Positions 6,763 through 31,460 are shown, numbered from the stretch's first letter. The stretch is 64,000 bases of DNA from Bacilli bacterium (GCA_017619815.1 JAFZRR010000062.1:18963-82962), one strand, 5' to 3'. Notes: generated from the letters alone by a model not told the origin. Translations and numbers: made by a program.

Positions 6763-6780
6763 TTAATTAGCGTAATTAAA

Positions 6781-6806
6781 CTCCCGTTTCGGCGGGAGTT
6801 TTTTTA
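6781..6806 (+). terminator. rho-independent terminator
   Basis: The perfect hairpin CTCCCG-TTTCGG-CGGGAG is followed by TTTTTTT. Confidence 0.8.
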
Positions 6807-6976
6807 TGGATTTAGTAAAATAATTTGCTATACTAAACAAAGATTACAATGCACATTAGTAAGTAGAGTGCTTTGCACTCGATGATTTCAGATTATGACG
6901 CATAACCCACAAAACAAACAAAATAGTTTGATTATTTTCAATAAATGTTTATGATTTAATTAAGTGGGAATGAATT

Positions 6977-7369: not shown

Positions 7370-7451
7370 TCAAATAATATCAAACTATAAAAATCAAAAT
7401 AGCGCCGTTAAATCGGTGCTTTTTGTTTCCTTATTATAAATAAAATTAATG

Positions 7452-7481
7452 TTGACAAGATAAATATGATTCCTATATATT
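7452..7481 (+). promoter_or_regulatory. sigma-A-like promoter driving riboswitch 1
   Basis: TTGACA is at 7452-7457, and a 17-18 nt spacer leads to TATATT at about 7476-7481. The aptamer begins about 14 nt downstream. Confidence 0.45.
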
Positions 7482-7492
7482 TGATTATGTAA

Positions 7493-7572
7493 AAAGCAAA
7501 ACAGTAGTGATACTGTGACGCAAAACTATAGGGTCTTAATAAATAAGGGGTAAGACAGCCAGTTGCCTTGTG
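7493..7572 (+). promoter_or_regulatory. c-di-GMP-I (GEMM-I) riboswitch aptamer 1
   Basis: AGCAAAAC-[CAGUA-GUGA-UACUG]-UGACGCAAAACUAUAGGGUCUUA...UAAGACAGCCAGUUGCC. The P2 hairpin has a GNRA (GUGA) tetraloop. The hallmark 'GACGCAAA(A/G)CUAUAGGGUC' is present. The P3 stem is GUCUUA/UAAGAC, and P1 pairs GCAA with UUGC. All of this matches the GEMM-I consensus as in Vc2 ('GGGCAAACC...GGACGCAAAGCC...'). Confidence 0.8.
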
Positions 7573-7620
7573 GATAGAAACAAAACCACTGTTATGATGA
7601 TAGGCAATGGCTTTTTGTTT
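7560..7620 (+). terminator. riboswitch 1 expression-platform terminator
   Basis: The 5' arm CAGUUGCCU is the P1 3' strand. It can pair with AGGCAAUGG at about 7601-7609, which is followed by CUUUUUGUUUU. This is mutually exclusive with P1, which implies an ON switch. Confidence 0.5.
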
Positions 7621-7676
7621 TAGTCCTTGGGACACATATTAATAAAAGACAAGCACTATTAAATTCAATTTTCAAT

Positions 7677-8456
7677 ATGGTCGATCTTAAATACATACGC
7701 AAACGTAAGACAAGACGAATCATAGCGGCGGTTGGAACTTCTTGTGCTGCAACAGCGATTATTATGATGGCTATTGCATTATTAGGTCAGAGGGCCGCTC
7801 CTTTAACTGTTACTTTGTCTAACAGTGGGGCGCAGCTTGCTTTATCTCAACATGCAGAGGAAGATTCTAATGCTGTTTATTTGGTAGCAGATTCAGTTCC
7901 GAGATATGATGAGTTCTGTGAAGAACAACTCATTTTAGCCAACAATGAATTGGAAATAGATGACGAAAATACTTATTCTCATTTAACTCCAAATGAACAG
8001 TCTACACTTTTCTTTAAGTATACATTCTATGTTACTAACAAAGGAAAGAGCGCAGCTAACTATGATTTGACTTTGTCAATGTCTCAACCAACCAAAGACG
8101 CGACGAATCGATACGATCTCGATTCTGTTTTGCGTGTGCGCTTCTACGAAAATAAAAATTTAGATGAGCACAACTACGTTACGTACGCGAAGAAAAGTTC
8201 CGAACCACACAAAGATGAAAACGGTAATCTTTCTTGGAAAGAAAAAGTTTCCGCTTTAGATGAAAGTGGATATGCAGAAGAATTCGTAAATTCTAGAACA
8301 ATTCTTACTTCCGCGGTTACTGGTTTAAAACCACAAGAAAAGATTAGATATACATTTGTATTTTGGATTGAGGGCGATGATCCACAATGCATGGATGAAG
8401 CCCCTGTTAATAGTGCACTTATCCTTGGAGTCGAAATAAGTGCGCACGAATCGTAA
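7677..8456 (+). CDS. secreted or membrane-anchored protein, first gene of the riboswitch-1 operon
   Basis: The N-terminal signal-anchor is 'RRIIAAVGTSCAATAIIMMAIALLG'. No known domain was recognised. The start lies 57 nt after the riboswitch terminator. Confidence 0.55.
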   Translation: MVDLKYIRKRKTRRIIAAVGTSCAATAIIMMAIALLGQRAAPLTVTLSNSGAQLALSQHAEEDSNAVYLVADSVPRYDEFCEEQLILANNELEIDDENTYSHLTPNEQSTLFFKYTFYVTNKGKSAANYDLTLSMSQPTKDATNRYDLDSVLRVRFYENKNLDEHNYVTYAKKSSEPHKDENGNLSWKEKVSALDESGYAEEFVNSRTILTSAVTGLKPQEKIRYTFVFWIEGDDPQCMDEAPVNSALILGVEISAHES

Positions 8457-9537
8457 AATATTCAACATAGCAAAAGACCGACTAATAATGCTGGCAACAG
8501 CAGTATTGTTCAATGTATCTCTCGCAGCAGTCGTCTGCGGGACTTTTGCTTGGTATTCGTACGCGACGCGCACAGGATTGGAAAAAGCATATCATGGAAC
8601 CACCGTTGGTGACATGGGATCATTACAAGCCGGTTTGGTTAGTGAGATTCAATTAGAAGACTATCTTGAATATGATTTAGCTGAAGATGACAGAACACTT
8701 GCCGACGAAGGTAAATACATTTACTGGTGTCAAGAAAATATTGCTGCAAGAACAATTAATTATGTTTTAGATAGCAATGGATATGCTACAACTGAAATGT
8801 ATCCAGTTACTTCCAGCGCTTTTGATTGGAGTGTGGAGAATCCAGAGTCTTTTTCACTATATTCAACACCTACTTATCTAAAAAATTATGATAAAAACGA
8901 TCTAGACTTTTTAGCTAATCCAAGAGACTACTCAGTCATGGATTTTGTTTTTAGATTTGAAGATATTGATAACATTGGCGAATATTTACCTGGTTATAAT
9001 GTTTTTCTTTCTGGCTGCAAAGTCGAAACTTCAAATGAAGAACACGAGATTTATAAATCAGTTCGCATTTTTTACAACAACGGATACGAAGGTGGCATAA
9101 TAAACCCAACAGCGACAGAAAATGGTTTTGATGTTGTTGGTGGTGTTCTCGATTTGAATGCCGATAACTTTTATGATTATGATGAAGAAACTTTCTTTGA
9201 AACAATATATGGTGAAGTCGAAAGTTTTGAATACAATTCAGAAGCAACAGAAAATGATGGAACACTTCCTTGGTATGAAACCGATACATTTATTTCCAAC
9301 CATAAAAAAGGTGTCTTTGCCCTTAATGACGAAACATTTGTTCCTAAAACCGTAAATTATATCGAAGGTGGTAGATTCACTTCCAAAGCGAAACGTATCA
9401 CCTATACAGATGAAACATACCATAATCTTGGCCGTTTTAAGATGTATTTATATTTTGAGGGTTGGGATACACATGTTGTTAATGAAGAGCAAGGATTTGG
9501 TTATAACCTTGATTTAGCATTCGCAGTGCAAATGTAA
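8440..9537 (+). CDS. secreted protein with a SipW-cognate-type signal peptide
   Basis: The start is GTG, with GGAG 10 nt upstream. The N-terminus 'MRTNRKIF...LMLATAVLFNVSLAAVVCGTFAWYSYA' carries the shared motif. Confidence 0.6.
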   Translation: MRTNRKIFNIAKDRLIMLATAVLFNVSLAAVVCGTFAWYSYATRTGLEKAYHGTTVGDMGSLQAGLVSEIQLEDYLEYDLAEDDRTLADEGKYIYWCQENIAARTINYVLDSNGYATTEMYPVTSSAFDWSVENPESFSLYSTPTYLKNYDKNDLDFLANPRDYSVMDFVFRFEDIDNIGEYLPGYNVFLSGCKVETSNEEHEIYKSVRIFYNNGYEGGIINPTATENGFDVVGGVLDLNADNFYDYDEETFFETIYGEVESFEYNSEATENDGTLPWYETDTFISNHKKGVFALNDETFVPKTVNYIEGGRFTSKAKRITYTDETYHNLGRFKMYLYFEGWDTHVVNEEQGFGYNLDLAFAVQM

Positions 9538-10625
9538 TGTACTATATGGACAAGAAAAAAGTAGCATTATTTGGAATAGCTGGATTGTCGCTTGTATTAG
9601 CGGCATCTATTTCTATGACTATCGCTTGGTATAACGGTAGTTCGTATTTAGCTATTAATCAGATTAACGTTGGCTTACATGATAAGAAATTATCTATTTC
9701 CACAGATAATGAAACTTTTAGAGATTTCATTCCTAACGATGAACTGAATAAGGTTGGTAAATTCAGGGCCGTTAGTACGATGTTCTGCGAGGACTGGATT
9801 GAAAGAAAAGAAGCAAAACCTGTATTTAAAGGTAGTTTTGGTACATCATCCAAAGATGTTGTTAATAGTGTGGATGATGCCAACAATACCTCAGGCGGGT
9901 ACTTCTCACAAGAAATCTTCATCAAGTGTGATTCCTCTGTTTATTTAACGTTAGATCCAGAACTAACCACATTTAATTCCGATGAAGAAGAAAACTTAAG
10001 TATGATTCAGGATTTACGTGAAAAATTCCCTGGTTTAACTGACGAGGAAATCTTATTCAACCTCAACAACGTTGTTAAATCATTGCGTATTTCGCTTCTC
10101 GTCTTAAATGATACAGGGGATGAAAGTGAAGAATTTCCTGATTATGCCTACTATATTATTGACCCATTTAAGGATAAAATAACTTTAATGGGTGGTATCC
10201 TAGATACCGATAAAGATGGTTTCTACGACTATTCTTTAGATAAAAATGAAGTCCTATACGGTCAGTCAATCTCGACTGACGAGGAAAAGTCAGTGGAAGA
10301 ATGTATCGTTTATAAAGATCCTACTGAAGCTGATGAAGAAGTAAGCACAAAAGAACTCACATGCTTTACTTCCGGCAACAAAGCAAATGTTAGAAAAATT
10401 GATTTCGATGCTTCGTTTGCCAACGGCCTGGCTATTAAAGAGGAACGTTCAACCGCTCTCGAAGATGTGGAAGAACAAGTTTTAATTCCACTTGAAGCCG
10501 ATGTCTCGAAGAGAATTATCTTATCTTTCTACCAAGAAGGATGGGACATCGAAAATACGGACTTCGTTAGATATTCTCATTTCTATGTGAATGTCATGTT
10601 TAAAATTGCCAGGGCTAGATTTTAG
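9537..10625 (+). CDS. secreted protein with a SipW-cognate-type signal peptide
   Basis: The N-terminus is 'MDKKKVALFGIAGLSLVLAASISMTIAWYNGSS'. The start overlaps the upstream stop as TAATG. Confidence 0.6.
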   Translation: MYYMDKKKVALFGIAGLSLVLAASISMTIAWYNGSSYLAINQINVGLHDKKLSISTDNETFRDFIPNDELNKVGKFRAVSTMFCEDWIERKEAKPVFKGSFGTSSKDVVNSVDDANNTSGGYFSQEIFIKCDSSVYLTLDPELTTFNSDEEENLSMIQDLREKFPGLTDEEILFNLNNVVKSLRISLLVLNDTGDESEEFPDYAYYIIDPFKDKITLMGGILDTDKDGFYDYSLDKNEVLYGQSISTDEEKSVEECIVYKDPTEADEEVSTKELTCFTSGNKANVRKIDFDASFANGLAIKEERSTALEDVEEQVLIPLEADVSKRIILSFYQEGWDIENTDFVRYSHFYVNVMFKIARARF

Positions 10626-10636
10626 GAGGTGGACTT

Positions 10637-12187
10637 ATGTCTGCATATTTTAATTATTTAGGGAAGTTGCTTGCTCAATTCTTTAGAGATTTAGCAGCGT
10701 TTTTCTATCATTTGATAGTGTGTCCATGGGGTGGCCACAGTAAAGGTTGGCCAAACATTGGATATAATTTCAAACTTTATAACGATTATTTGAAGGCATA
10801 TTCGCCAGAATTTGGTCCTCTAGGCTGGATTATGTGGGTGTTATTCTTATTACTCGCTATCGGCATGATCGGTGGTGCGTGTTATGGATTATTCCTACTT
10901 ATCCGTAAGTATGTTAAGTTCGCTAAGACTGAACTTGATAAAGATGCTTTAAAACGTCAAGTCGAAAGACTCAATTACGAGTTATATGACATGATGAAAG
11001 AAAGAGATAAGATTCTTGAATTAAAGATGAAATCTTTAGGTATTGACGGAAAACGTCCACCTGAAGAAGGTATGTCTGAAGAAGAACAAACTATCGATGA
11101 GATTCAATCTCGTTTCCCAAAATTATCACACGTTGATAATGAATATAACGGAAAAGATATGTCTATTCCTGAAGTCCCAGATCTTACTCTTGCACAAGTT
11201 TGCGAAAACTTCAGAAACTTCGCAGCAAGCCAAATGGGCTTGTATTACACAATCGACACCATCCGTCATGTTATTGCCGGTATCGGTGCGGGTAAAATTG
11301 TCATCCTTGAAGGTATTTCCGGTACAGGTAAAACCTCCATGCCTTATGCCTTAGGAAAATTCCTCAAGAACGATGCCAATATTTGTTCTGTCCAACCTAA
11401 CTGGAAGGATAGAAGTGAACTCTTAGGTTACTACAATGAATTCACAAAGAAATTCAATGAATCAGAATTCTTAAGAGCCTTATATACTTCTATTTATAGA
11501 AGAGATGTTAACATTATCGTCCTCGACGAAATGAACTTAGCTCGTGTCGAATACTACTTCGCCGAGTTCTTATCCATTCTTGAAATGCCTAATCCAAATG
11601 AATGGAATATTGAAATGATTGGTTCTCGTGACCCTCACGATCCAAAACTATTTAAAAATGGCAAAATTAAAGTCCCACAAAATGTGTTCTTCTTTGGAAC
11701 AGCGAACAACGACGATAGTACATTCACAATTTCCGATAAGGTCTATGACCGTGCTATCTGTTTATTCTTTGACAATAAAGGTATTGCCTTTGATGCTCCA
11801 TTCCAAGGACCAATGGATATTCCTTATGAACAACTTCAACACTTATATGATGAAGCTCTTGAGAAATTCCCAGTGAGTGAGAAGACACTTGAAAACTTCG
11901 CTTTATTAGATGACTTCGTTATTAAAAAGTTCAGATTGGCGTTTGGTAACCGTATTTTGAAACAACTCAAACAATTCGTTCCATGCTTCGTTGCCTGTGG
12001 TGGCACTGAACTCGATGGTATCGACTTCATCTTTACTAATAAAATTCTTAAGAAGTTCGAATCCTTAAACATCGGCTTCTTAAAACAAGAACTTAAAGAA
12101 CTTAATCAAATGCTCGATAAATTGTTCGGCACAAACACATTCCCAATGGCCCGTAACTTTATCGATCGTATGATTAGAATGAACTAA
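10637..12187 (+). CDS. membrane-anchored AAA+ ATPase of the AAA_5 / McrB-like family
   Basis: RBS GGAGGTGG precedes the start. There is an N-terminal TM ('WIMWVLFLLLAIGMIGGACYGLFLLI') and a coiled coil. Walker A is 'ILEGISGTGKTSMPYALGKF' and Walker B is 'IIVLDEMNLARVEYYFAEFLSILE'. The sensor region 'FFFGTANNDDSTFTISDKVYDRA' follows the McrB/MoxR-dynein pattern. Confidence 0.7.
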   Translation: MSAYFNYLGKLLAQFFRDLAAFFYHLIVCPWGGHSKGWPNIGYNFKLYNDYLKAYSPEFGPLGWIMWVLFLLLAIGMIGGACYGLFLLIRKYVKFAKTELDKDALKRQVERLNYELYDMMKERDKILELKMKSLGIDGKRPPEEGMSEEEQTIDEIQSRFPKLSHVDNEYNGKDMSIPEVPDLTLAQVCENFRNFAASQMGLYYTIDTIRHVIAGIGAGKIVILEGISGTGKTSMPYALGKFLKNDANICSVQPNWKDRSELLGYYNEFTKKFNESEFLRALYTSIYRRDVNIIVLDEMNLARVEYYFAEFLSILEMPNPNEWNIEMIGSRDPHDPKLFKNGKIKVPQNVFFFGTANNDDSTFTISDKVYDRAICLFFDNKGIAFDAPFQGPMDIPYEQLQHLYDEALEKFPVSEKTLENFALLDDFVIKKFRLAFGNRILKQLKQFVPCFVACGGTELDGIDFIFTNKILKKFESLNIGFLKQELKELNQMLDKLFGTNTFPMARNFIDRMIRMN

Positions 12188-12239
12188 TTTTAATAAGCAA
12201 AAATTTGCTTATTATTTCCCCTTATATTAAACTATTACT

Positions 12240-14903
12240 ATGGCAAAATTATCAAAATATCAAACTCTCCAGAAGAAATTAATGGCTCAGACAACTAAGT
12301 TGTTTGATCTTAGTGATGCCAAAGAGCTTTATACTGCACTTTCTAATGGTCAAAATTCTTATTTAAGATTTGATAGATTTGAAAGTACCGCCATGGATAT
12401 GACATGGATTAAACAAATTGAAGACTGTATCCCAGACCTCAATGAAATCGTTTCTAATCCAAAAAGAACTATTCAAACTCTCGCTGAAGTCGTGGAAGTG
12501 GAAAAAGTTAAAAGAACTACCCACGAATCTGTTCAGCATTTAGCGAGCCATTCTCAATTCGTTAAAACCATTGATGAAGATGGAAATGTTACTCCATCTA
12601 AGATTTTGAATGTTTACAACGATGACTTCTTTGCAATTTACGAAAATAAATTCGTTGCTACATTATTAAGAAGATTATTCTTATTCGTGGAAAAGAGATA
12701 TGACTACATCATCCATCAAGCGACATTAAAAGATGTTGAGTTGTTATATTTCAAAAACAAAACCGAAATCAATGGTAGTGAAATTGAGATTGAAACAAAA
12801 ATCAGATATTCAAAACCAGCTTTGGATGAAGCAGATGAAAAATTAAAAGAAATGCTTCGCAGAATTAATGATATTAGAAGATATCTTAGATTCTTTGGTG
12901 GTTCTGAATTTATGAGAATCTTACATCGTGAAAGAGATGTTAGAAACCCAATTCTTCAAACAAACATTATTCGTAAGAACCCAAAATACAGACACTGCTA
13001 CCATTTGTGGCAATTTATCAATTCATATAATGAATCTGGTGTCGAAATTAAAGTTGAAGAAAACTTTGCTAAATTAACCGAAGAAGACTTAAAAGAAATT
13101 AATAAGGTTTTAACTATTAACTTCTTAGCCTTGAAAGGTAGAGATGCACCAGTTCAAGAAGCTAAACCAAAGATTTACCGTCCTCGTATTTTAAGAACGT
13201 ATGACGATGAAATGTACAATCCAGGTGCATCTTTTGACTCACCTGTGGAATTCGTTCGTGTTGATGAGAAATATCGTCAATATAAGGAAACTTTGAAAGA
13301 TCTCAATCCTCATCCTACTAAGGCGTACGCGGAATATATGAAAAATGAGTACGCGGATAATAAATTAAGAAGAGAAGAAACCGCTCAAAAGGATTCTTTA
13401 ATTAAGCGTAAAGAAAACGAATACAAGAAATACGAAAAGACCCAAGAAGAACTTCTCATCAAAGAACAAGAAGATTGGGAAATGATTGGTGATCTTGCTG
13501 AACAACAAATTCAGGAAGAACAAGAAGAAAGACTTAGACCACTTCGTGAAAAACTCGGTATCCAAGGTGATGAAGATGAAACAAGAATTAACGATGCCAT
13601 CTCCACTGAAGGACGTATGCAAGAAATCATCGAAGATGCTCCTATTAGAAAACCTTCTCAACCAGTCGAAGAAGAACCAGAAGAACTCGACTCCATGCCA
13701 ATTGAAGTGGCGGAAGAAGTCGTTAGTAAAAAAGAGCCTCAAAAAGAAGAATCACAACAACCAGCCGAACAACCTAAAGAAGAAAAAGTTAAGGGCAGTT
13801 GGGGTGGTGCTCGTGCAGGTGCTGGTCGTAAACCAAAACCACGTCCTGAACCTGTAGAGGAAGTTCAAGAAGAACAACCACAACCTGAACCAGAACCAGT
13901 CGTGGAAGAAAAGACTGAAGAACCTGTTAAAGTTAAGGGTTCATGGGGCGGAGCACGTCCAGGCGCAGGTAGAAAACGTAAGGTTGTTGAACCAGTAGAA
14001 GAAGCTCCTGTTGAGGAAGAACCTGTGGTTGAAACTCAACCAGAACCTGTCCAAGAACAAGAACCAGTCAAGGTCAAAGGATCTTGGGGTGGTGCAAGAC
14101 CTGGCGCAGGCCGCAAACGCAAAGTGGTTGAAGAACAACCTCAAGAAACTCAACCAGAGCCGCAGCCAGAACCAGTTATAGAAGAACCTCAACCAGTTGC
14201 TGAACAACGTGTCAAAGGTAGTTGGGGCGGAGCTAGACCAGGCGCAGGAAGAAAACGCAAAATCGTTGCAGAACCTGAAGAAGTTAAGGGAGAAACTCCT
14301 ACAGAACCAGAGCCAATTAATGAATCAGAACCAGTAAAAGTGAAAGGCTCATGGGGAGGTGCACGTCCAGGTGCTGGTCGTAAACGTAAAGTGGTGGAAG
14401 AACAACCACAAGAAGCTGCTCCAATTGAAGAAAAACCAGTTGAACAACCACAACCTATAGAAGAAAAAGTTAAAGGATCTTGGGGTGGTGCAAGACCTGG
14501 AGCTGGTAGAAAACGTAAGGTTGTTGAACCTGAACCAGTCGTTGAAGAAACACCAGTTCAAGAAACTCCTATAACAGAAGAACAACCAGTTAAAAAACAA
14601 CGTGGTGGTTATCGCCCAGGTGCAGGTAGGAAACCGAAGAAACCAGTGGTTCATATGGAAGCAGTGGAAAACACACCTGCTGAAGTTGTTATTAAAAAGC
14701 AAAGAGGTGGCGCACGTCCTGGTGCAGGTCGTAAACCAAAACCAAAGACCGAGCAACCTATTAAAGGCAAATGGGGAGGCGCAAGACCAGGAGCTGGCCG
14801 TAAGCCAAAACCAAAATCTGATGTGCCAGTCGTAAAGAAACAACGTGGTGGAGCACGTCCTGGTGCAGGAAGAAAACCAAAACCACGTCCAGAAAACGAA
14901 TAA
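12240..14903 (+). CDS. cytoplasmic repeat protein: about 330-aa N-terminal domain, an E/K/Q/P-rich linker, then about ten 'GGARPGAGRK(R/P)K' basic repeats
   Basis: There is no signal peptide. The units 'VKGSWGGARPGAGRKRKVVE' recur every 42-48 aa from about aa 517, and the final four are 'KKQRGGARPGAGRKPKP'. It is tightly linked within the operon. Confidence 0.6.
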   Translation: MAKLSKYQTLQKKLMAQTTKLFDLSDAKELYTALSNGQNSYLRFDRFESTAMDMTWIKQIEDCIPDLNEIVSNPKRTIQTLAEVVEVEKVKRTTHESVQHLASHSQFVKTIDEDGNVTPSKILNVYNDDFFAIYENKFVATLLRRLFLFVEKRYDYIIHQATLKDVELLYFKNKTEINGSEIEIETKIRYSKPALDEADEKLKEMLRRINDIRRYLRFFGGSEFMRILHRERDVRNPILQTNIIRKNPKYRHCYHLWQFINSYNESGVEIKVEENFAKLTEEDLKEINKVLTINFLALKGRDAPVQEAKPKIYRPRILRTYDDEMYNPGASFDSPVEFVRVDEKYRQYKETLKDLNPHPTKAYAEYMKNEYADNKLRREETAQKDSLIKRKENEYKKYEKTQEELLIKEQEDWEMIGDLAEQQIQEEQEERLRPLREKLGIQGDEDETRINDAISTEGRMQEIIEDAPIRKPSQPVEEEPEELDSMPIEVAEEVVSKKEPQKEESQQPAEQPKEEKVKGSWGGARAGAGRKPKPRPEPVEEVQEEQPQPEPEPVVEEKTEEPVKVKGSWGGARPGAGRKRKVVEPVEEAPVEEEPVVETQPEPVQEQEPVKVKGSWGGARPGAGRKRKVVEEQPQETQPEPQPEPVIEEPQPVAEQRVKGSWGGARPGAGRKRKIVAEPEEVKGETPTEPEPINESEPVKVKGSWGGARPGAGRKRKVVEEQPQEAAPIEEKPVEQPQPIEEKVKGSWGGARPGAGRKRKVVEPEPVVEETPVQETPITEEQPVKKQRGGYRPGAGRKPKKPVVHMEAVENTPAEVVIKKQRGGARPGAGRKPKPKTEQPIKGKWGGARPGAGRKPKPKSDVPVVKKQRGGARPGAGRKPKPRPENE
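13786..14900 (+). repeat. in-frame coding tandem repeats (about 126-144 bp units, degenerate) encoding the GGARPGAGRK motifs
   Basis: AAGGG(T/A)TC(A/T)TGGGG(T/C)GG(T/A)GC(A/T)(C/A)G(T/A)CC(A/T)GG(T/C)GC(A/T)GG(T/C)(C/A)G(T/A)AAAC(G/C)(T/A)AA recurs at 13792, 13933, 14071, 14215, 14341, 14467, 14590, 14695, 14764 and 14839. Confidence 0.8.
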
Positions 14904-14916
14904 AAAGAATTAATTT

Positions 14917-15696
14917 ATGTTTGGAAAAGACAAAAAAGAGAAAAAACCTAAAAGTAAAGCCAGGAAGATAATCGATTGGGTTGTCACTGGTGTCTTTGTG
15001 GCATTAATTACTGGAGTAGTCGTTGTCCAAATTATAAATAAAACAAGTAAGAACCAATTCGTCCTCGGACCTCAATATCAAAAGGTTCTTACAGACTCAA
15101 TGTCCCCTGTCTATAAAGTTAACGATATTATTGTCGTTGAAAAGACAAGTGCAGCAGATTTGTATAAAAGGGTGAATGAGAAACACCAAGATGTTGATCT
15201 TTCATTTAAATGGGATATTGATGGCCAAGAAGTTTCTATGACGCATAGACTTCAAACAGTGACGTATTCCGAGGAAGTCCAATTTGATCCAATCTCTGGC
15301 GTTGGATACCATTACACATTTGTCGCACATGGTATCAATAAAACCAGTGAATGGTGTAAAGGCACTGGTGGCTACTATGATTGTACAAATCAAACTCAAA
15401 CGTTCCATGAGGATGCAATCATAGGAAGAGTAACTAGAAAGAGTTACTTGATGACCTTTGCGACATCTATATGGGGATTACTAATATTATTATTAGTGCC
15501 TTGTATGTATCTCATCATTGCGAGTGTGCTTGATATATTCAAAGCGGTGAAAGATGATGATGAAGTTCCTGCAAATGGTGAAGTAGTGGGTGAAGCCAGT
15601 GATAAACCAAAAGATCCACTTGCTGGATTAAGTGAAAAAGAAAAAGAAAAACTCAAGAAGCAAATGCTTGATGAAATGTTAGGAAAGAAAAAATAG
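14917..15696 (+). CDS. sipW: SipW-type (S26B, archaeal/ER-type) signal peptidase I
   Basis: The N-terminal TM is followed by 'VLTDSMSPVYKVNDIIVVEK' (B. subtilis SipW has 'VLSGSMEPTFKTGSLIAVKK', catalytic Ser). The catalytic His context 'SMTHRLQTV' parallels SipW 'AVTHRIVDI'. There is a C-terminal TM anchor and a KE-rich tail. Confidence 0.75.
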   Translation: MFGKDKKEKKPKSKARKIIDWVVTGVFVALITGVVVVQIINKTSKNQFVLGPQYQKVLTDSMSPVYKVNDIIVVEKTSAADLYKRVNEKHQDVDLSFKWDIDGQEVSMTHRLQTVTYSEEVQFDPISGVGYHYTFVAHGINKTSEWCKGTGGYYDCTNQTQTFHEDAIIGRVTRKSYLMTFATSIWGLLILLLVPCMYLIIASVLDIFKAVKDDDEVPANGEVVGEASDKPKDPLAGLSEKEKEKLKKQMLDEMLGKKK

Positions 15697-15717
15697 TTAG
15701 AAAGGAGAAGCGAAAGT

Positions 15718-17253
15718 ATGTACAAACAAAAAAGAACTGCTCGTGCGTTATTTATTGTCTTTCTTGTTTTTACAGTTGTTGGATTGATTAGCATTGTTGC
15801 TTATCAATTTGTGCCACAGTTAAAGGACTATCACTTTATTACTTTAGGTGCTGCTTTAATCACATGTGGTTATGCTGCGGTTGCTTTTGCTAACCTTTAT
15901 AAATTAATTTCCTACAATGAACAAATCCGTTCTCTTTATGTGGAAAATAGATACAACCTTTCTCGTGAAAGCTTGTTCTATAACTACACAATGTTTGAAA
16001 AGAGAATTAATAAATTAACCAAATTACATAAGAAATCGGGTTCTTATATCATTGCATTCACTGCATCAAAGAGAACCGTCATGAGAAACTTATATAGAAA
16101 CGGAACTGTTACTCAATTAAATGGTTTCATTTCTGACTCATTAAACGAAATCTTGAGTCATAACAAACAATATGAACAAGATGATTTTGCATATTGTTAT
16201 TACCATGGCCAATTTGTCATCTATACATACTTACCACTTAACAAAGTGCAAGATATCATTTTGAACATTCAAAAAGAAATCTACGCAATTGTGGCAAGAA
16301 ATGACTTAAAGGTTTATACAATACCATATTTCGGTGTTGCGGATGTGAGACCAGAATTATCTTTATTTGAATGTTTAGATAACGCATTAACTGCAAGAGA
16401 TTATTCTGAAAAGCACTTTGAAGCGGAAACATTCTATTCTGATGATTTAAGAAAAGATGCTTCTTTAAGTGAAGTTGAAGAATTAAGAGAAGCTATCAAG
16501 AACAATGAAATGGAAGTTTATTATCAACCAAAATTCCATTTAGCCACGAAGAGGTTTGTGGGCTGTGAAGCTTTGGTGAGATGGAATTCTCCAAGATATG
16601 GTTTATTAGCACCAGGCAGATTCTTAGATAAAGCAGAAATCTCTGGTTTAATTCATGAAATTGATATGTTTGTCTTTAAACGTGTCTGTGAAGACTTAGC
16701 GTCCATTCGTAGAAAAGGTGACAGAATGCTTCCTGTCTCTGTCAATTTCTCTATGTATGAATTCTATTCACAAGACTTCTTTGACAACATCTCAAAGATT
16801 ATTAATAAAACCGGTGTTTCTACTTCTTTGATCCAAATTGAAGTTACTGAAACAACCGCACAAGCAAATCCATTTATGACCACATCTATTCTTAAGAAAC
16901 TAAAAGAAAATGGTTTCCGTATTTTAATGGATGACTTTGGTTTAGGTTTTTCTAACCTAGGTAATTTAAACAGAATGGAATTTGATACAGTTAAGATTGA
17001 TAAGACATTTATCGATGGTTTAATTACCGACGCAAAGAGTAGAGAAATCGTTAAATTCTTAATTGCTTTATGTAAAACAAACAATATGGAAGTTATCGCT
17101 GAAGGTGTTGATAAGGTGGAACAAGTGGAAATCTTAAGAAAAGCCAAATGTGATGTTATTCAAGGTTTCTATTATTCCAAACCATTACCAATCAGAGATT
17201 ATCAAGACTTCCTAAAGAATAACCCATTTGAAAAGAAAGAGGAGGCTGAATAG
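15718..17253 (+). CDS. membrane-anchored c-di-GMP phosphodiesterase (EAL domain)
   Basis: RBS AAAGGAGAAG precedes the start and there are 2 N-terminal TM helices. The EAL motifs are intact: 'GCEALVRWNSP', 'LMDDFGLGFSNL', 'IAEGVDKVEQ' and 'QGFYYSKP'. Confidence 0.8.
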   Translation: MYKQKRTARALFIVFLVFTVVGLISIVAYQFVPQLKDYHFITLGAALITCGYAAVAFANLYKLISYNEQIRSLYVENRYNLSRESLFYNYTMFEKRINKLTKLHKKSGSYIIAFTASKRTVMRNLYRNGTVTQLNGFISDSLNEILSHNKQYEQDDFAYCYYHGQFVIYTYLPLNKVQDIILNIQKEIYAIVARNDLKVYTIPYFGVADVRPELSLFECLDNALTARDYSEKHFEAETFYSDDLRKDASLSEVEELREAIKNNEMEVYYQPKFHLATKRFVGCEALVRWNSPRYGLLAPGRFLDKAEISGLIHEIDMFVFKRVCEDLASIRRKGDRMLPVSVNFSMYEFYSQDFFDNISKIINKTGVSTSLIQIEVTETTAQANPFMTTSILKKLKENGFRILMDDFGLGFSNLGNLNRMEFDTVKIDKTFIDGLITDAKSREIVKFLIALCKTNNMEVIAEGVDKVEQVEILRKAKCDVIQGFYYSKPLPIRDYQDFLKNNPFEKKEEAE

Positions 17254-17254
17254 T

Positions 17255-17992
17255 ATGATTTTGATCGTTGGCAGTAATCATGATGATGTCATCTATTTTC
17301 AAAGTGCATTAAAAGACGCTAAAGAAGAAATTATTCTTAACAAGTATCGTGCATCTATCGGCACCATCCTCAATCAAAACGTGATGGTTCTTCAAGATGT
17401 CTATACATCCTATGTTAGCAGTGCATTATTAACTCATATCATTGAGAAATACTTCGTTCTCATGGTATTTGTCGTCGGCACATGTTTTGCGCAAAATAAA
17501 GCCTTAAAAGTGGGAGATATCGCTATCAGCGAAATGGCGACATTTGGTGATGTTGATCAAATCAAAATGCTCAAAGGTACAAATCTTGGTCAAATCCCAG
17601 GATACCCACAACTCTTCTATTCCCATAAAGAATTAATTAGAAATATGGAAGAAGCTCTCAACAGTGTTGGAGCGAATAACTATATGCGCTGCACATTTAT
17701 GAATTCTTCCTACTATAGAAGAGATGAACAATTAATCGAAGAATTATCAATGGAAGATAATATCGCAAATAGAAATAAGAACACTGTCCTTGATGGTGTG
17801 ACAACTGGTGTTGCTTTAGCGGCACATCTATTTGATATTCCATTTATTTCCGTCAAAGTCATTGAAGGACAAGCTGGACAAAGAACATCCATTGATTCAT
17901 ATATGACAATTCTTGAAGAATATAGTGTTGTCGGAAAAGCCGTTACTGTCTGTATTGGTGAAATCAGCCGTAACGATGTTTTGAGAGGATAA
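17255..17992 (+). CDS. MTA/SAH-nucleosidase (Pfs/PNP_UDP_1) family protein, divergent at catalytic positions
   Basis: The start was moved to ATG 17255, which has RBS AGAGGAGG. 'KVGDIAISEMATFGDVDQ' matches Pfs 'KVGDIVVSDEARYHDADV', 'IPGYP' matches 'LPGCP', and 'VTTGVALAAHLFDIPFISVKVIEG' matches '[25 protein letters not shown]'. The Pfs catalytic Asp197 and Glu174 equivalents appear to be replaced by G and D. Confidence 0.55.
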   Translation: MILIVGSNHDDVIYFQSALKDAKEEIILNKYRASIGTILNQNVMVLQDVYTSYVSSALLTHIIEKYFVLMVFVVGTCFAQNKALKVGDIAISEMATFGDVDQIKMLKGTNLGQIPGYPQLFYSHKELIRNMEEALNSVGANNYMRCTFMNSSYYRRDEQLIEELSMEDNIANRNKNTVLDGVTTGVALAAHLFDIPFISVKVIEGQAGQRTSIDSYMTILEEYSVVGKAVTVCIGEISRNDVLRG

Positions 17993-17997
17993 TAATT

Positions 17998-20900
17998 ATG
18001 AAACAAAAACAACAATCCTCATTAAGAACATATATTTCTAAGAGTTACTTAGCTTTAATCATTATCGCAGCGGTGATGATTATTTCACTAGGTTTATTCT
18101 TAGTTGGTTTTATCGTTTTAGATGGAACGCTTCAATTAGTATTTGAAATAGTGGGTGGCTCTCTCTTACTACTTTCACTTATTGGAGTATTTGTTTTATT
18201 CATTCTTTCATCCGAAAAACAATATAACTTGTTCTATAACACCCTTTACAAGGGAAGTATGAAGAACTTAGAAGCTATTAAAGATAGAAATTTAGAAGTT
18301 GATCAAATTCCTGATGAATCAGTGAAAGAATTCCAAGAAATTAACGAAATCTTCAATGATATTAATGATCAATATAAAGGCAAAATTATTACTTCTAAAG
18401 AAGGCGATATTGAGAATATCCCATTAGAATACTTTGATGATGAAAAAGTATTGGTCAGCTATGACTCATTGATGAATAACATCGTTGATTTAATTATTGT
18501 TACCAAATCATTTAGAAATGCTTTAGTGGAAATCTATTATGACTTACAAGCGGAAGATATCTCTGAAAACGATGAGAAGAGAATCTTAAATAAGATTAAA
18601 GAAGGTCTTCAATATAAGAACTTATTAATTTCTAAGAACAAGAAACAAAATGGTTTCATTATTTATGTTCCTGTCTTTGATAGTGTTTCTCAACTTCAAG
18701 AAGAAATCGAAGGCTTGTTCCGTCACATTTCTATTATCAAGAGAACAAATGAAGGTAGAAAGATTGTCGCTCCAAAAGTAGCGATAGTTATTTATCCATA
18801 TTCTTCACCAGAAAATATGGTCAATGATTTAGCAATCGCAAAGAGAAGTGATAAGACAATTAATGTCTTCTTACCATCTAAAGAAAATAAAGCTAATAAT
18901 TCTCCATTATTCGAAAATCTCAATGTTAATGAATTAGCAAAGATATCTGAAAGATTGGATTTATTAGATATCGATGATGTTGATGGTCAAAAAGAAATCA
19001 ATCGCGCCTTGAATGATATTTGTAATTACTTCTCATTCACATCTGTTGGCTACGCAAAACTCAATAAAGTTAAGAAACAATTCCTTTGTGAATATTCATA
19101 TTCTCCAGAAGAAAAACACTTAGTATTACAAGAAAAACCAATCTCCGCGAAGTTTATCAATAAATTAGTGGAAGTTAAAGATAGTGATCAATCTTACTAT
19201 TTCAGCAATAGACAACACCTTAATGATTCTTTAGCGGCGTTTATCGATAGTCACGAAATCAAATCTGGTTTGTTCTATCTCGTTATGAAAGATGGTATCG
19301 CTGTCGGTGTTATTTACTATCTCAATAACGATAAAGAGATGGAATACGATTGTTCCATCAAGCAAGGTTTAATTAATATTTCCAACAAGATTGGTAATTA
19401 CATCAAATCTATTGATGATCAACATATCGCAAATATCAACGCGAAGAGATTCCAAGAAGTCTTAAAACTCAATAATGATATTCTCTATTCTGTTAACCCA
19501 GATGATTATTCATTATTCTTTGTGTCCGCAGCGCTTCAATCTATTTGTCCAAGTGCACAAATAGGTGAGAAGTGTCATAAAGCCTTATATGGTAGTGATA
19601 CTCCATGTAAAGCTTGTCCACTTGTGACCAAGAAACATATGGTGGAAATCTTAAAACGTCGTAAATTTGAAACTAGTGTCGTTTTACATAACTCCGAAGA
19701 TAAAGCGGAACACCTATACTTAAAACCAATGGAAAAGAATAAGAATACAAGTGACTTGTTCTCACCTGATTTCTTAATCAATTCCTATTACTCCTTCTGC
19801 TCATACTTAGAAGATGAATTCGCCTTAGAACATGAAGGTGAAATCTTATTCTTAAATATCGATAACGTTCCTCAATTAATTAAATCATTAGGTAACGATG
19901 GTTATATCAAGGCGATTAGAAACTTCTTTGATGCTATTAGAGAAGAAATTGATATGAACTTAACATTATATTTATATAAGAATGATAACTTTGCGTTATT
20001 ATTCCCAAGCAGTTCAAAAGAAGATGTTATCTCTTTAACCGAATCCTTGTATAGCCTTGCTAAACAAAATATGGTGGGTAGCAAACAAGCTGCATTAAAC
20101 ATTTCTTACTATGACTTCAAATACCCTGAATCAAGCAAGGAATATAAATTATGGATAAATCATGCCGAAAAAGTCATGACAGGTCTCAGAAGAGGCAAAA
20201 AGACCGATTTAATTTACTTTAATGAAGATAAGTACACTAGAAGTGCTTCTAGAGAAGAATTCATGCTTCAAAATGTTCTCGAAGCCTTCAAGAGAAAGAA
20301 ATACTTCATGGAATATCAACCAATTGTTGGCAATAGAGATAGAGTTATCCATGGTGCTGAATTATTGCTCAGATTAAACGATCCATTTACCAATGCTCCA
20401 CTTAACATTGGTGAGGCAATCAATATCGTGACCAAACACAACCGTATTGATTTGGTCGCAGAAGCTATGACTGATTGTCTAGAAAAATTATTCCAAGTTG
20501 CGGATTTACCATTCTTCCAATCCATGGGCCTAGAACATTTATCTGTGAACGTTGATTATCAAACATTATCTGATAAATCATTTATTGAAAGCTTTGATTC
20601 TTTAACCAAGAAACATAACGTTCCAAAAGGATTTATCTGCTTTGAAGTTCCTGAATCTGACATTATGGATCATTATGATGAATTTAGAGATTTACACTTC
20701 GAAAACGAAGTCTTGGTGTGTGACCAATATCATGGTGAACTCTTAAGACTTGACCAATTACAAGCTATTGGATTTAAAGAAGTTAAGATGTCTAGAGACG
20801 TTATCTTAAATATCATTAATGATGACGTTGCCTTACAACGCGCGAATGATGTTTGGAAGTTTGCAAACGAAATCGGTATGTTTGTGACATTTGTCGGTGT

Positions 20901-21051
20901 TGAAAAACGTCAACAAGCTGACTTATTACATGATGATGTCCGTGATAGTAACTTCCAAGGTCGATTCTTCTATTCCCCAATGAGTGAAGAGAAGTTCTTC
21001 AAGACATTACGTGAATCCTCAATTAAATCAATTGCGGATTTAGATAACTAA
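17998..21051 (+). CDS. large membrane-anchored protein with a C-terminal degenerate EAL domain (candidate c-di-GMP sensor)
   Basis: There are 2 N-terminal TM helices and a Cys cluster, 'CPSAQIGEKCHKALYGSDTPCKACP'. The C-terminus 'EYQPIVGNRDRVIHGAELLLRL' is EAL-like with the catalytic E retained, but the DDFG(T/A)G metal-binding motif is replaced by 'DQYHGE'. 'FVGVEKRQQ' and 'QGRFFYSP' are retained. Confidence 0.65.
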   Translation: MKQKQQSSLRTYISKSYLALIIIAAVMIISLGLFLVGFIVLDGTLQLVFEIVGGSLLLLSLIGVFVLFILSSEKQYNLFYNTLYKGSMKNLEAIKDRNLEVDQIPDESVKEFQEINEIFNDINDQYKGKIITSKEGDIENIPLEYFDDEKVLVSYDSLMNNIVDLIIVTKSFRNALVEIYYDLQAEDISENDEKRILNKIKEGLQYKNLLISKNKKQNGFIIYVPVFDSVSQLQEEIEGLFRHISIIKRTNEGRKIVAPKVAIVIYPYSSPENMVNDLAIAKRSDKTINVFLPSKENKANNSPLFENLNVNELAKISERLDLLDIDDVDGQKEINRALNDICNYFSFTSVGYAKLNKVKKQFLCEYSYSPEEKHLVLQEKPISAKFINKLVEVKDSDQSYYFSNRQHLNDSLAAFIDSHEIKSGLFYLVMKDGIAVGVIYYLNNDKEMEYDCSIKQGLINISNKIGNYIKSIDDQHIANINAKRFQEVLKLNNDILYSVNPDDYSLFFVSAALQSICPSAQIGEKCHKALYGSDTPCKACPLVTKKHMVEILKRRKFETSVVLHNSEDKAEHLYLKPMEKNKNTSDLFSPDFLINSYYSFCSYLEDEFALEHEGEILFLNIDNVPQLIKSLGNDGYIKAIRNFFDAIREEIDMNLTLYLYKNDNFALLFPSSSKEDVISLTESLYSLAKQNMVGSKQAALNISYYDFKYPESSKEYKLWINHAEKVMTGLRRGKKTDLIYFNEDKYTRSASREEFMLQNVLEAFKRKKYFMEYQPIVGNRDRVIHGAELLLRLNDPFTNAPLNIGEAINIVTKHNRIDLVAEAMTDCLEKLFQVADLPFFQSMGLEHLSVNVDYQTLSDKSFIESFDSLTKKHNVPKGFICFEVPESDIMDHYDEFRDLHFENEVLVCDQYHGELLRLDQLQAIGFKEVKMSRDVILNIINDDVALQRANDVWKFANEIGMFVTFVGVEKRQQADLLHDDVRDSNFQGRFFYSPMSEEKFFKTLRESSIKSIADLDN

Positions 21052-21067
21052 TAAAACAAACAAAAAA

Positions 21068-21100
21068 GATGCCCAATACAAACAGGGCATCTTTTTCTTT
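21068..21100 (+). terminator. rho-independent terminator at the end of the + operon
   Basis: The hairpin GATGCCC-AATACAAACA-GGGCATC is followed by TTTTTCTTT. Confidence 0.75.
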
Positions 21101-21103
21101 ATC

Positions 21104-21158
21104 TATTAAAAAAGCTGGAAACCACCAGGTACATGACCGGTCTTGATACGAATCCAGC
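21104..21158 (-). terminator. rho-independent terminator at the end of the - operon
   Basis: On the - strand the GCUGGA...UCCAGC hairpin is followed by UUUUUUAAU. It is convergent with the previous terminator. Confidence 0.5.
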
Positions 21159-21202
21159 ACACATATTAAAACAAAGCATTATATTTTATTCAATAAGATT
21201 TG

Positions 21203-22516
21203 TTATTTCTCTTTCTTGACTGATTTCTTTTCTTTGCTTTTCCTGTTGATAATCAAACTCCTAAAGAAGTGCACTAAGAAGGTGATACAAACCACCAAGA
21301 CAACTATTTGAAGAATTGTGACGTTAAATAGAACCGCGATATATTTAGCCACTTTTGGTGCAAAATATGTACTGATTGCGGCGATTTCAAGTAACGAGAA
21401 GAATGCGCTTAATAGTGATATATATCCAACACCTAATTTATATGTATTGTTTTCTCTTCTGCTAACTCTAATGGTTTTAATCGCGTTAACAAATCTTAAG
21501 ATACCAAATGGAGCGATGATGAATAAGAATAATAAGATGTCTTTTCCTAATGTTGCGTCTGTTGTCATTAAGAATATTGCGGCGAATGTAATAACACCAG
21601 AGAAGAAGAAATAGGCAAAAGCATTGAATAAGAGTATAAAAGATGATTTGCGGTTTTCTGCAATTTTATTATCGCCAACTTGTTTCAATATCTTTCTGTG
21701 CCACAAGTAGTTGATTAATCTTATTAAACCTGTACCAAGATAGAATGCTGCTAAAACGATATAAACCCAGTGTTGTTTAGCATTTAATAAAGCAAGGATT
21801 GCTAGATACACTGTAAAGATTAATCCAAAGAACATTGCAACTTCATGTTCATTAAACCATCTAATGGTATGTTTGATTTTTGCCCCTGTAGAGAGTTCTT
21901 CTTTGGTTTTACTACGAATATCTGTGGATAACGCTAAAAGGGCGGCAATAATCGTAAAAGTGGCATTTAAGGCTACATCTATGATGTATACCCAGATAGG
22001 TTTATCACTAAAAGTGAATGTAAACGGATTTAAATTCTCTCCTGGGAAGAATTGATTCATTAACACTAATTCGAAAATAAGTATTAAATAAAATGAACTT
22101 AATAAATCATTATTACGATATGCATGTGAAAGTGGTGCATAGTTTTTCTTAATAGATATATGAAGTATTAATGAAATGAATAACTTTAATAACGCTACTC
22201 CACCAAAGATGAGATATGCAAGTGGCCAATATAACATTGTGTTATTTGGATCATTCCACAATGACATCACAAGTAAGTAGTCCATCATAATAACGACACT
22301 TATGACTTGGAATACACCTTGTACGCGCATGGCTTTATATTCATCTTTGATACCCATTGGAACAAAGATAAATAATCCTTCAAACATGAAGTGAACACCG
22401 ATAGTTATAAACCACCAGTTTTGAAGATATGAAAGATAAAAACAAAATCCGCCGATAGCGAAAGATGCTATAGCGGATATTATTTCTAATAAGATTGTTG
22501 AAGTTTTATTTTTCAT
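21203..22516 (-). CDS. polytopic membrane protein (about 12 TM), last gene of the riboswitch-2 operon
   Basis: It is hydrophobic throughout with a basic C-terminal tail, 'RKSKEKKSVKKEK'. No known family was recognised. Confidence 0.5.
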   Translation of the reverse strand: MKNKTSTILLEIISAIASFAIGGFCFYLSYLQNWWFITIGVHFMFEGLFIFVPMGIKDEYKAMRVQGVFQVISVVIMMDYLLVMSLWNDPNNTMLYWPLAYLIFGGVALLKLFISLILHISIKKNYAPLSHAYRNNDLLSSFYLILIFELVLMNQFFPGENLNPFTFTFSDKPIWVYIIDVALNATFTIIAALLALSTDIRSKTKEELSTGAKIKHTIRWFNEHEVAMFFGLIFTVYLAILALLNAKQHWVYIVLAAFYLGTGLIRLINYLWHRKILKQVGDNKIAENRKSSFILLFNAFAYFFFSGVITFAAIFLMTTDATLGKDILLFLFIIAPFGILRFVNAIKTIRVSRRENNTYKLGVGYISLLSAFFSLLEIAAISTYFAPKVAKYIAVLFNVTILQIVVLVVCITFLVHFFRSLIINRKSKEKKSVKKEK

Positions 22517-22566
22517 AAATCTTATTGTATAAGGATTGTTTTGATTTTAGTAGTAATAGTGCATCA

Positions 22567-31450: not shown

Positions 31451-31460
31451 AACGTCTTAT

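Follow-up and report, generated by a model that had tools for sequence, protein, structure and literature searches.

A c-di-GMP riboswitch-headed operon of the CoCoPALM class in a Bacilli bacterium, with secreted proteins, a SipW-like peptidase and a nuclease-less McrBC-type pair

Gene content and control region

A stretch of 64,000 nucleotides from a Bacilli bacterium (GCA_017619815.1 JAFZRR010000062.1:18963-82962; hereafter, the window) contained nine co-directional genes at 7677-21051, called as open reading frames (ORFs) separated by gaps of approximately 0-52 nt and headed by a riboswitch for cyclic dimeric GMP (c-di-GMP). All positions, in the gene calls as in an earlier note on this DNA, were counted from the first letter of the window. 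The earlier note had taken the region for a candidate c-di-GMP-controlled surface-fibre or assembly system, and the features that it described were all found in the sequence where it had placed them.

The nine genes, all on the plus strand, were in order: S1 (7677-8456), for a 259-amino-acid (aa) putative signal-anchored beta-sandwich protein; S2 (8440-9537), for a candidate secreted beta-sandwich subunit; S3 (9537-10625), for a candidate secreted, pilin-like beta-sandwich subunit; a 516-aa McrB-like AAA+ GTPase with an AAA_5 domain and one transmembrane (TM) segment (10637-12187); an 887-aa nuclease-less McrC homologue with a DUF2357 N-terminal domain and basic repeats (12240-14903); a SipW-like signal peptidase of the archaeal type, S26B (14917-15696); EAL1, with two TM segments and an EAL phosphodiesterase domain (15718-17253); an MTAN-like protein of the MTAN fold (PNP_UDP_1; 17255-17992); and EAL2, a 1017-aa protein with two TM segments, a degenerate GGDEF domain and a degenerate EAL domain (17998-21051). 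S2 starts at either GTG 8440 or ATG 8488, the latter giving the 349-aa product annotated on public contigs. The likely start of S3 is 9546, and the MTAN-like gene probably starts at ATG 17255 and not at TTG 17228. Five public metagenome contigs encoding identical proteins had the same gene calls.

The riboswitch comprised a c-di-GMP-I (GEMM-I) aptamer at 7485-7570 (+; Rfam RF01051, 63.4 bits against a gathering score of 35) and, as its expression platform, an intrinsic terminator identified by folding at 7558-7621 (+). The 5' arm of the terminator, GCCAGUUGCC (7558-7567), is part of the aptamer's own 3' end; its pairing partner is GGCAAUGGC (7603-7611), and UUUUUGUUUU then trails the hairpin. 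Since aptamer and terminator compete for one strand, the riboswitch is predicted to act as a c-di-GMP ON switch. Terminator helix and U-run were clear in six of eight orthologous leaders, with compensatory changes (e.g., UUACC/GGUAG in locus L040). The helix in L046 was offset from the aptamer end called by Rfam, and in L022 only the 3'-arm motif was found. Seven out of seven diverse related loci had a c-di-GMP-I aptamer directly 5' of the S1 orthologue (47.7-71.1 bits), and one of seven distant loci had such a riboswitch heading the cluster.

The sequence TTGACA-18-TATATT at 7452-7481 (+), a consensus match only, was the top sigma-70-like promoter match within 6700-22700 (11 of 12 positions). 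A small gene farther upstream, described below, has a terminator of its own at 7401-7420. Given this promoter and the separate upstream terminator, the transcription unit plausibly starts at the riboswitch. These elements, the aptamer and the narrow gaps agree with the single riboswitch-led operon that had been proposed.

The GTPase and its McrC partner

By hydropathy the GTPase has a single TM segment at about residues 57-90, followed by a coiled-coil-like (heptad-like) charged helix at 95-135 and then by the AAA_5 core identified by Pfam. Its motifs were: Walker A GISGTGKTS; Walker B LDEMN; and signature GTANNDDST (NxD-D). Structures of Escherichia coli McrB in the PDB were matched at E = 0.002 with the single sequence and at E = 2e-4 with a profile, the alignment running from Walker A through the signature motif. 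The TM-anchored, McrB-like ATPase described in the earlier note was therefore borne out. GTANNDDST aligned with GLMNTADRS of E. coli McrB, and its NNDD is formally readable as NxxD too. The DNA-binding N-domain of McrB was not detected by Pfam; the TM segment and helix were found in its stead. The N-terminal helix gave a weak match to the Bap31 coiled coil only (Pfam, E = 0.04).

In total, 8310 cluster representatives matched the GTPase at E <= 1e-3. Among the best 150 of these, N-x-D-[DE]-S-T was kept in nearly all, and three architectures were present: proteins of about 500 aa with one or two TM segments, as in the window; proteins of about 600 aa with four or five; and CoCoNuT-like proteins of 700-870 aa without TM segments.

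The neighbouring 887-aa protein matched DUF2357 over about residues 1-330 (28.1-31.8 bits against a Pfam cutoff of 23.3). The domain was also found in 40 of 46 orthologues and, in one distant locus, scored 41.2 bits. DUF2357 is the N-terminal domain with which McrC docks in the McrB hexamer and activates it (PMC11090510). Its presence identifies the membrane GTPase and its neighbour as an McrB/McrC pair without a nuclease: Pfam detected no nuclease or other domain beyond DUF2357 in the 887-aa protein, and hydropathy no TM segment. A PDB profile search with the DUF2357-domain alignment returned chance-level matches only. DUF2357 is followed by a charged stretch at about 360-470, helical as judged from the sequence only, and by an acidic E/P-rich linker.

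The tail of this protein carries ten basic motifs of the form WGGARPGAGRK(R/P)K, encoded at 13791-14885 (the pattern G[GAS]xRxG[AS]GR[KPR] was counted ten times). At the DNA level the copies were 60-84% identical and appeared as diverged direct repeats only, and TRF found no tandem DNA array in the region. This level of identity indicates that the peptide was conserved and that the repeats had not recently slipped. GGARPGAGRK-type repeats were confined to the closest relatives and, separately, to L067. As they were absent from most orthologues, they were rejected as a defining feature. What the earlier note had called a basic-repeat partner thus has its ten repeats, but it is a nuclease-less McrC homologue in which the repeats are not conserved.

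Across 72 orthologues the tail ranged from about 120 to 1900 residues and was E/K/P-rich, with lineage-dependent content. A basic end (net charge of at least +5 over the last 50 residues) was present in 37 of the 72. L079 carried canonical AT-hook motifs (KKRGRPAK, KKRGRPRK, GKRGRPRK) in place of GGARPGAGRK-type repeats, which speaks for binding of the DNA minor groove by at least some tails. The McrC homologues of L024, L030 and L070 were 2054-2247 aa long. That of L024 (5430-11591 of that locus) contained at least 17 Big_2 Ig-like domains (407 bits), and the other two had similar tails. On reading the sequence, with no TM scan run, the L024 protein had no evident signal peptide or TM segment. 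A C-terminal domain of about 50 residues, with the consensus IPGRFIVKTxxGYYVxxxxYSxxKxDAxVFDDFNxAxxIKxxLGGKVVKL, was found in 14 loci (L063, L065, L067, L071, L078, L083 and others) and had no Pfam, PDB or PHROG match. The simplest reading of the tail is a DNA- or polyanion-binding tether; the boldest would make it an exported stalk.

The architecture has a name. CoCoPALM was introduced in one paragraph by Bell, Makarova, Wolf and Koonin (eLife 2024; PMC11090510), who deferred its analysis to a later publication, and the words 'previously undescribed' in the earlier note therefore did not hold. CoCoPALM was defined as a large clade of McrB GTPases with an NxD signature, usually followed by E or a second D, that is fused to an FtsB-like TM and coiled-coil segment; the adjacent McrC homologue usually has a coiled coil, and signal-peptidase-family genes are associated (PMC11090510). 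The window locus has in common with that description the NxD McrB-like GTPase with an N-terminal TM and coiled-coil-like segment, the nuclease-less DUF2357 McrC homologue with its coiled-coil-like region and the signal-peptidase genes, and it is a member of this named, functionally unexplored class. The published FtsB homology was not reproduced, as no FtsB/DivIC Pfam match was obtained in the GTPase N-terminus at E <= 0.1. No later paper on CoCoPALM was found in a literature search, and the supplementary text of PMC11090510 contained nothing on it. Its main text makes no mention of EAL proteins or c-di-GMP riboswitches, of substrates of the SipW-cognate type, of S1 as an anchor, or of the MTAN-fold protein and the variable tail (PMC11090510).

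Conservation of the gene cluster

One genome per species was scanned for a near set; at least 555 species had GTPase relatives, and the best 80 loci were analysed. These belonged to uncultured gut or rumen Bacilli, e.g., Candidatus Onthovivens, Candidatus Enterosoma and Clostridium sp. CAG:288. The order S1-S2-S3-GTPase-McrC-SipW-EAL1-MTAN was collinear in 80 of 80 loci as far as the contigs reach, and 39 had all nine genes in order. The SipW-like gene adjoined the GTPase/McrC pair in 69 loci, the remainder being lost to contig ends. Median identities in the near set were: GTPase, 60%; DUF2357, 45%; and S proteins, approximately 30%.

A distant set of 80 metagenomic loci (GC 23-59%) was obtained from representatives 37-44% identical to the window GTPase. 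Counts were taken from the 28 loci with at least 6 kb of flank on both sides, annotated with hidden Markov models (HMMs) of the near clade. An McrC-like gene was present in 28 of these, SipW in 27, an S1-like gene in 27, S2/S3-like genes in 24 and an EAL gene in 12. The usual order was EAL-S1-S3-SipW-McrB-McrC-SipW. Confirmation of the distant annotations by Pfam and NCBIfam included EAL at 88-163 bits, DUF2357 at 41 bits, TIGR02228 at 86-95 bits and TIGR04088 at 19.7 bits. The SipW-like genes were assigned to their family through TIGR02228 and Peptidase_S26.

Altogether, the core of the system is five components: S1-like, S2/S3-like, SipW, McrB-like and McrC-like. The c-di-GMP connection is recurrent and not universal, and the small protein encoded upstream, EAL2 and the MTAN-like protein are features of the near clade. 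The linkage on which the earlier note had staked its reading, of the ATPase and its partner with sipW and the secreted proteins, was kept in the 80 related genomes and in the 28 distant loci.

Two SipW copies were present in 30 of the 80 distant loci. In many of the distant loci (L090-L163) two SipW-type genes flanked McrB/McrC and a stand-alone 250-aa EAL gene came first.

These counts bear on whether the genes are mere chance neighbours, that is, a sipW fibre operon into which a degenerate McrBC defence remnant was inserted. McrBC is mobile and often decays, and the McrC homologue has lost its nuclease, as such a remnant might. The linkage persisted, however, in 80/80 related and 27-28/28 distant loci despite rearranged gene order. 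Moreover, conservation within the operon was highest for the GTPase (median 60% against approximately 30% for the S proteins) and its Walker and signature motifs were intact, which rules out a decaying remnant; the GTPase also has a dedicated TM anchor. Because of the comparative linkage data chance adjacency was excluded, as a very improbable account.

Secreted proteins and the signal peptidase

Each of S1, S2 and S3 has one N-terminal hydrophobic segment (hydropathy). The signal-peptide motif of S2 reads CGTFA|WYSYATR and that of S3 MTIA|WYNGSS. Among orthologues the hydrophobic helix closed with G/S-T-[FILV]-A-W-[YF] in 55 of 65 (S2) and 68 of 75 (S3), the AW[YF] of S2 lying near position 32 in those 55. 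Distant S2/S3 homologues had [AS]W[YFW] in 70 of 70 cases, mostly as T-[YF]-A-W-F-[TS]. The corresponding sequence of TasA is GGGTWA|AFND; in the fibre structure 8aur, AFND is where the mature protein begins. Because the S2/S3 motif mirrors this cleavage site, both proteins are predicted to be cut at A|W[YF].

At the sequence level, no likeness to TasA was found past the signal peptides. At E <= 0.1 window S1-S3 had no match to TIGR04088, to which one distant S3-like protein (L160) scored 19.7 against a cutoff of 19. Window S1 and S3 had no match to TasA/camelysin or Peptidase_M73 in Pfam, NCBIfam or PDB profile searches, and hhalign against TasA gave probabilities of 2% (S3) and 0.8% (S1). 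PDB profile searches with the S1 and S3 alignments returned chance-level matches only. Sub-threshold Pfam matches to EACC1 (S1), NCE101 (S2) and CUE (S3) were judged to be TM or low-complexity noise. Of the claim that the secreted proteins are TasA/camelysin-like, the SipW-cognate-like signal peptides of S2 and S3 stood, but no TasA/camelysin sequence match was found. The signal peptides thus look TasA-like, and the mature domains are not demonstrably TasA at the sequence level.

AlphaFold models were confident, with pLDDT values of 86.7 (S3) and 81.2 (S1), and those of S1 and S3 each ran from an N-terminal helix through a linker of low confidence to a beta-sandwich. Foldseek found no match for the S3 model in the PDB with E < 0.08. 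Among the structure matches of the S-protein models, an enrichment of donor-strand fibre subunits was suggestive but weak.

S2 was a weak paralogue of S3 (BLASTP E 7e-5). Loci had two to four S2/S3 paralogues, with one or two extra S2-like copies in some related loci, and this variable number resembles a complement of major and minor pilins. S1 had no AWY motif, had a conserved ALLGQRAAPLT segment and was the best conserved extracytoplasmic protein in distant loci, a combination that fits a membrane anchor or nucleator.

The SipW-like peptidase has an N-terminal and a C-terminal TM segment (hydropathy) and a conserved cytoplasmic tail. The Ser of TDSM(E/S)P (TDSMSP in the window) and the His of MTHR were invariant in 26 orthologues, and the GDN box reads GIN. 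The window protein scored 47.6 bits with NCBIfam SipW (NF046067) against a cutoff of 190 and 23.9 bits with TIGR02228 against 51.85, the latter cutoff being passed by distant homologues in the same context (94.6 and 86.3 bits). The earlier assignment to the archaeal-type SipW peptidases is supported by the invariant Ser and His boxes and by these homologues, although the window protein itself falls below both the TIGR02228 and the SipW cutoffs.

A small gene at 6977-7369 (+), a separate transcription unit upstream of the riboswitch, encodes a 130-aa protein with TM segments at 7-42 and 59-90 and was found upstream in 45 of the 80 related loci. The protein ends in DLNEEQKAALRAELLKEL, and the same motif occurs in the tail of the SipW-like peptidase (15550-15696, +), LSEKEKEKLKKQMLDEML. 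Of the small protein's 43 orthologues, 37 were recognised by an HMM of SipW C-terminal tails, which matched nothing else among the 190 window ORFs. The small protein resembles a SipW stripped of its catalytic domain, and the motif may be a docking site through which it and the peptidase bind one cytoplasmic partner. As a universal feature of SipW the tail motif was rejected, since the near-clade HMM matched only one of 103 distant SipW-like ORFs. A sub-threshold Pfam match of the small protein to SieB was judged TM or low-complexity noise.

The same proteins can be read without fibres, S1-S3 being membrane-anchored or released adhesins, or SipW-matured matrix proteins, that do not polymerise, with McrB/McrC not a mechanical assembly motor but a regulatory GTPase switch or chaperone for SipW or for assembly of a membrane complex, possibly downstream of EAL2. 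The beta-sandwich fold matches are generic, a donor-strand feature is not demonstrated, and S1, lacking the cleavage motif, looks signal-anchored. The cytoplasmic motif common to the SipW tail and the small protein could dock a regulator, and in Staphylococcus aureus the McrB-family nucleoside triphosphatase (NTPase) PcdA serves as a positioning or regulatory factor (PMC10602043). A strictly conserved aromatic motif right after the predicted cut is, however, typical of fibre-forming SipW substrates, and two to four paralogous subunits per locus are typical of pili. We consider this alternative unlikely and retain polymerising subunits as the preferred reading of S2 and S3.

The c-di-GMP proteins and neighbouring genes

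EAL1 and EAL2 each have two TM segments by hydropathy. EAL1 scored 231.9 bits with Pfam EAL and kept the motifs YYQP, EALvRW, N, EIEITE, DDFG, KID, EGV(D/E) and Q in 64 orthologues; it looks like an active phosphodiesterase. EAL2 scored 90.8 bits with EAL and 18.4 bits, below the cutoff, with GGDEF. In 46 orthologues DqYtG stood in place of DDFG, KisR in place of KxD and VGVE in place of EGVE, and the protein is a candidate c-di-GMP receptor with a degenerate GGDEF-EAL pair. Degenerate membrane GGDEF-EAL proteins of the LapD type are receptors, and LapG, the partner protease of LapD, is unrelated to SipW.

Between the two, always so in the near clade, lay the MTAN-like gene, whose product scored 34.9 bits with PNP_UDP_1 and 52.1 bits with TIGR01704 (cutoff 73.8). 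Compared with an E. coli Pfs reference, the Asp197 equivalent was variable (R/S/G/Y/A/N), as was the Glu174 equivalent; the SAGG ribose loop was lost; and Glu12 was invariantly Asp. These replacements suggest that the protein is probably a pseudoenzyme, which may be structural or ligand-binding. It may be likened to the Spiroplasma cytoskeletal protein Fibril, which has a nucleosidase-like N-domain. The motif conservation and sub-cutoff scores agree with the earlier description of EAL1 as active-looking, EAL2 as degenerate and the MTAN-like protein as divergent.

Further c-di-GMP elements occurred in the window. A second c-di-GMP-I riboswitch, at 31381-31457 (-; 57.6 bits), heads a convergent operon of ORFs at 26902-31377, 22567-26883 and 21203-22516 (all -). 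These encode giant proteins of 1491 aa (with a Big_3 domain) and 1438 aa, both with N-terminal hydrophobic segments, and a 437-aa multi-TM protein. The giant proteins are probably c-di-GMP-controlled adhesins, and a second riboswitch before giant Big_3 surface proteins fits an adhesion regulon. Homologues of the giant proteins were found near the CoCoPALM operon in several related loci, in one of which (L011) a riboswitch preceded one of them. A GGDEF diguanylate cyclase was encoded at 3315-4466 (+; 87.5 bits), 3 kb upstream of the operon, which places a source of c-di-GMP, its sinks, two riboswitches and a candidate receptor all within 30 kb. In Clostridioides difficile c-di-GMP riboswitches turn on pili and adhesins at the RNA level; the pili there are type IV and the riboswitch is of class II.

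The ORF at 31588-32466 (+) encodes a 292-aa protein with an unusual fusion of an N-terminal TacA-like/ribbon-helix-helix antitoxin segment and a C-terminal hexapeptide-repeat transferase.

The c-di-GMP elements also bear on a defence function. On that alternative the cluster is an anti-phage or anti-mobile-element conflict system derived from Type IV restriction, in which McrB/McrC senses or acts on foreign nucleic acid through the AT-hook or basic tails and the membrane and secreted proteins are effectors or surface sensors. The ancestry is that of McrBC, and the NxD clade is shared with the predicted-defence CoCoNuTs. The GTPase matched the PADLOC defence candidate PDC-M26A at 1.7e-39; nucleic-acid-binding-like tails recur (AT-hook-like here, KRGRPRK in L079, basic ends in 37/72); and the tail and S2/S3 are hypervariable in a way that resembles an evolutionary arms race. 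CoCoNuT/PDC-M26 proteins are the sister group within the same NxD GTPase clade, and the 700-870 aa relatives without TM segments share GTANxD[DE]ST. CoCoNuTs are, however, cytoplasmic, with nucleases or HEPN domains and predicted RNA targeting, whereas the window locus has a membrane anchor, no nuclease and a pilus-type neighbourhood. No nuclease or toxic effector domain was detected in the McrC homologue or its neighbours, PADLOC recognised only the GTPase among the operon's components, and PHROGs gave no match. The same chromosomal context and gene order in 80 species amount to vertical synteny, unlike patchy defence islands. The predicted ON riboswitch, the active-looking EAL1, the degenerate EAL2 and the EAL genes of distant versions argue for a surface or biofilm function over defence, and the embedded EAL genes and the neighbouring c-di-GMP-controlled adhesin operon likewise point to surface or biofilm physiology. 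A defence role is accordingly judged improbable.

Discussion

The operon is probably a c-di-GMP-induced surface-fibre system whose subunits are matured by SipW and whose assembly is driven or gated by a co-opted, nuclease-less McrBC-type GTPase. At high c-di-GMP the aptamer would retain GCCAGUUGCC, the terminator would be blocked and the nine genes would be transcribed. S1, S2 and S3 would insert in the membrane through their N-terminal helices, and the SipW-type peptidase would cleave S2 and S3 at T-[FILV]-A|W-[YF], as SipW does TasA at GTWA|AF. The freed beta-sandwich subunits are proposed to polymerise on membrane-anchored S1 into a surface fibre or pilus, probably by strand complementation. 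At the cytoplasmic face the McrB-like GTPase would form a ring that its TM helix and coiled coil anchor at the membrane; DUF2357 of the McrC homologue would dock in this ring and stimulate GTP hydrolysis as in McrBC. Processing of the subunits and their assembly across the membrane would be driven or gated by this co-opted motor or switch. The McrC tail, which is hypervariable and in many cases basic or AT-hook-like, may serve as a tether. EAL1 would degrade c-di-GMP and provide negative feedback, and the degenerate EAL2 may sense c-di-GMP post-translationally. What the analysis established is the riboswitch, the gene set, the identity of the domains, their conserved linkage and the retention of motifs and catalytic residues. 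ON control, cleavage at the predicted site and fibre formation itself are proposals, as are the steps assigned to the GTPase, for which the grounds are homology and linkage, and the energised assembly or export for which the earlier note had argued.

The closest counterparts of the secretion half are tapA-sipW-tasA of Bacillus subtilis and sipW-bsaA-bsaB-bsaC of Clostridium perfringens (PMC11580942), in which, as here, a SipW-type peptidase accompanies at least two secreted beta-sandwich proteins. The signal peptides end alike, in G/T-T-aromatic-A followed by an aromatic residue at P1' or P2' (GTFA|WY here, GTWA|AF in TasA). BsaA oligomers are membrane-anchored (PMC11580942), and we propose a likeness to S1. 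In contrast to the present operon, those of TasA and BsaA lack an NTPase and an McrC-like protein, and the S proteins have no detectable sequence homology to TasA. To our knowledge, neither the TasA nor the BsaA operon is riboswitch-controlled.

With McrBC of E. coli (PDB 6hz4, 6ut6) the operon has in common the AAA+ GTPase core and the DUF2357-bearing partner. In place of the DNA-binding N-domain of McrB it has a TM helix and coiled coil, in place of the PD-(D/E)xK nuclease of McrC a low-complexity tail, and the signature is NxD(D), not NxxD. A precedent for exaptation exists in PcdA of S. aureus, an AAA+ NTPase of the McrB family that was recruited from restriction to a task in cell biology (PMC10602043). 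PcdA acts in division-plane selection and differs in lacking both an McrC partner and neighbouring peptidase or pilin genes (PMC10602043).

Several points weigh against a GTPase-assisted, SipW-matured fibre. TasA-type fibres of Bacillus need no NTPase, so that a role of the GTPase in assembly is not required, and McrBC relatives are otherwise defence systems. Homology of S1 and S3 to TasA/camelysin was not found at the sequence level (Pfam, NCBIfam, PDB profile, hhalign), the window peptidase lies under its family cutoffs with a GDN box that reads G(I)N, and the AT hooks or 17 Big_2 domains of some McrC tails are not explained by the model.

A stronger version of the fibre reading would make the McrBC-derived ring and shaft a new class of envelope-spanning, NTP-driven fibre assembly, different from the sortase, chaperone-usher and type IV routes and from the self-assembly of TasA-type fibres. 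A membrane-tethered GTPase hexamer, turning over around an asymmetric McrC-like plug, would mechanically link cleavage by SipW with the insertion of subunits in bacteria that have neither wall nor sortase; in the boldest form of this version, the signal-less McrC tail would be threaded out in the appendage or would couple the pilus base to DNA. We regard this version as possible and doubtful.

CoCoPALM is abundant, with GTPase relatives in at least 555 species and thousands of protein clusters. Relative to the main text of the naming paper, the new elements are the c-di-GMP layer, the substrates defined by a conserved SipW-type motif and a core gene set delimited over a wide GC range. The c-di-GMP layer supplies an experimental handle on the class. 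From the placement in GTDB of metagenome-assembled genomes with such names, and as the related locus of Clostridium sp. CAG:288 suggests, the window organism may belong to RFN20, and if so a membrane-based, sortase-independent fibre machine would make sense for its lineage. If the GTPase does power or gate fibre assembly, the system would present a striking case of a restriction motor exapted to a new role and would explain how appendages are built in sortase-less bacteria, some of them predicted to be without a cell wall.

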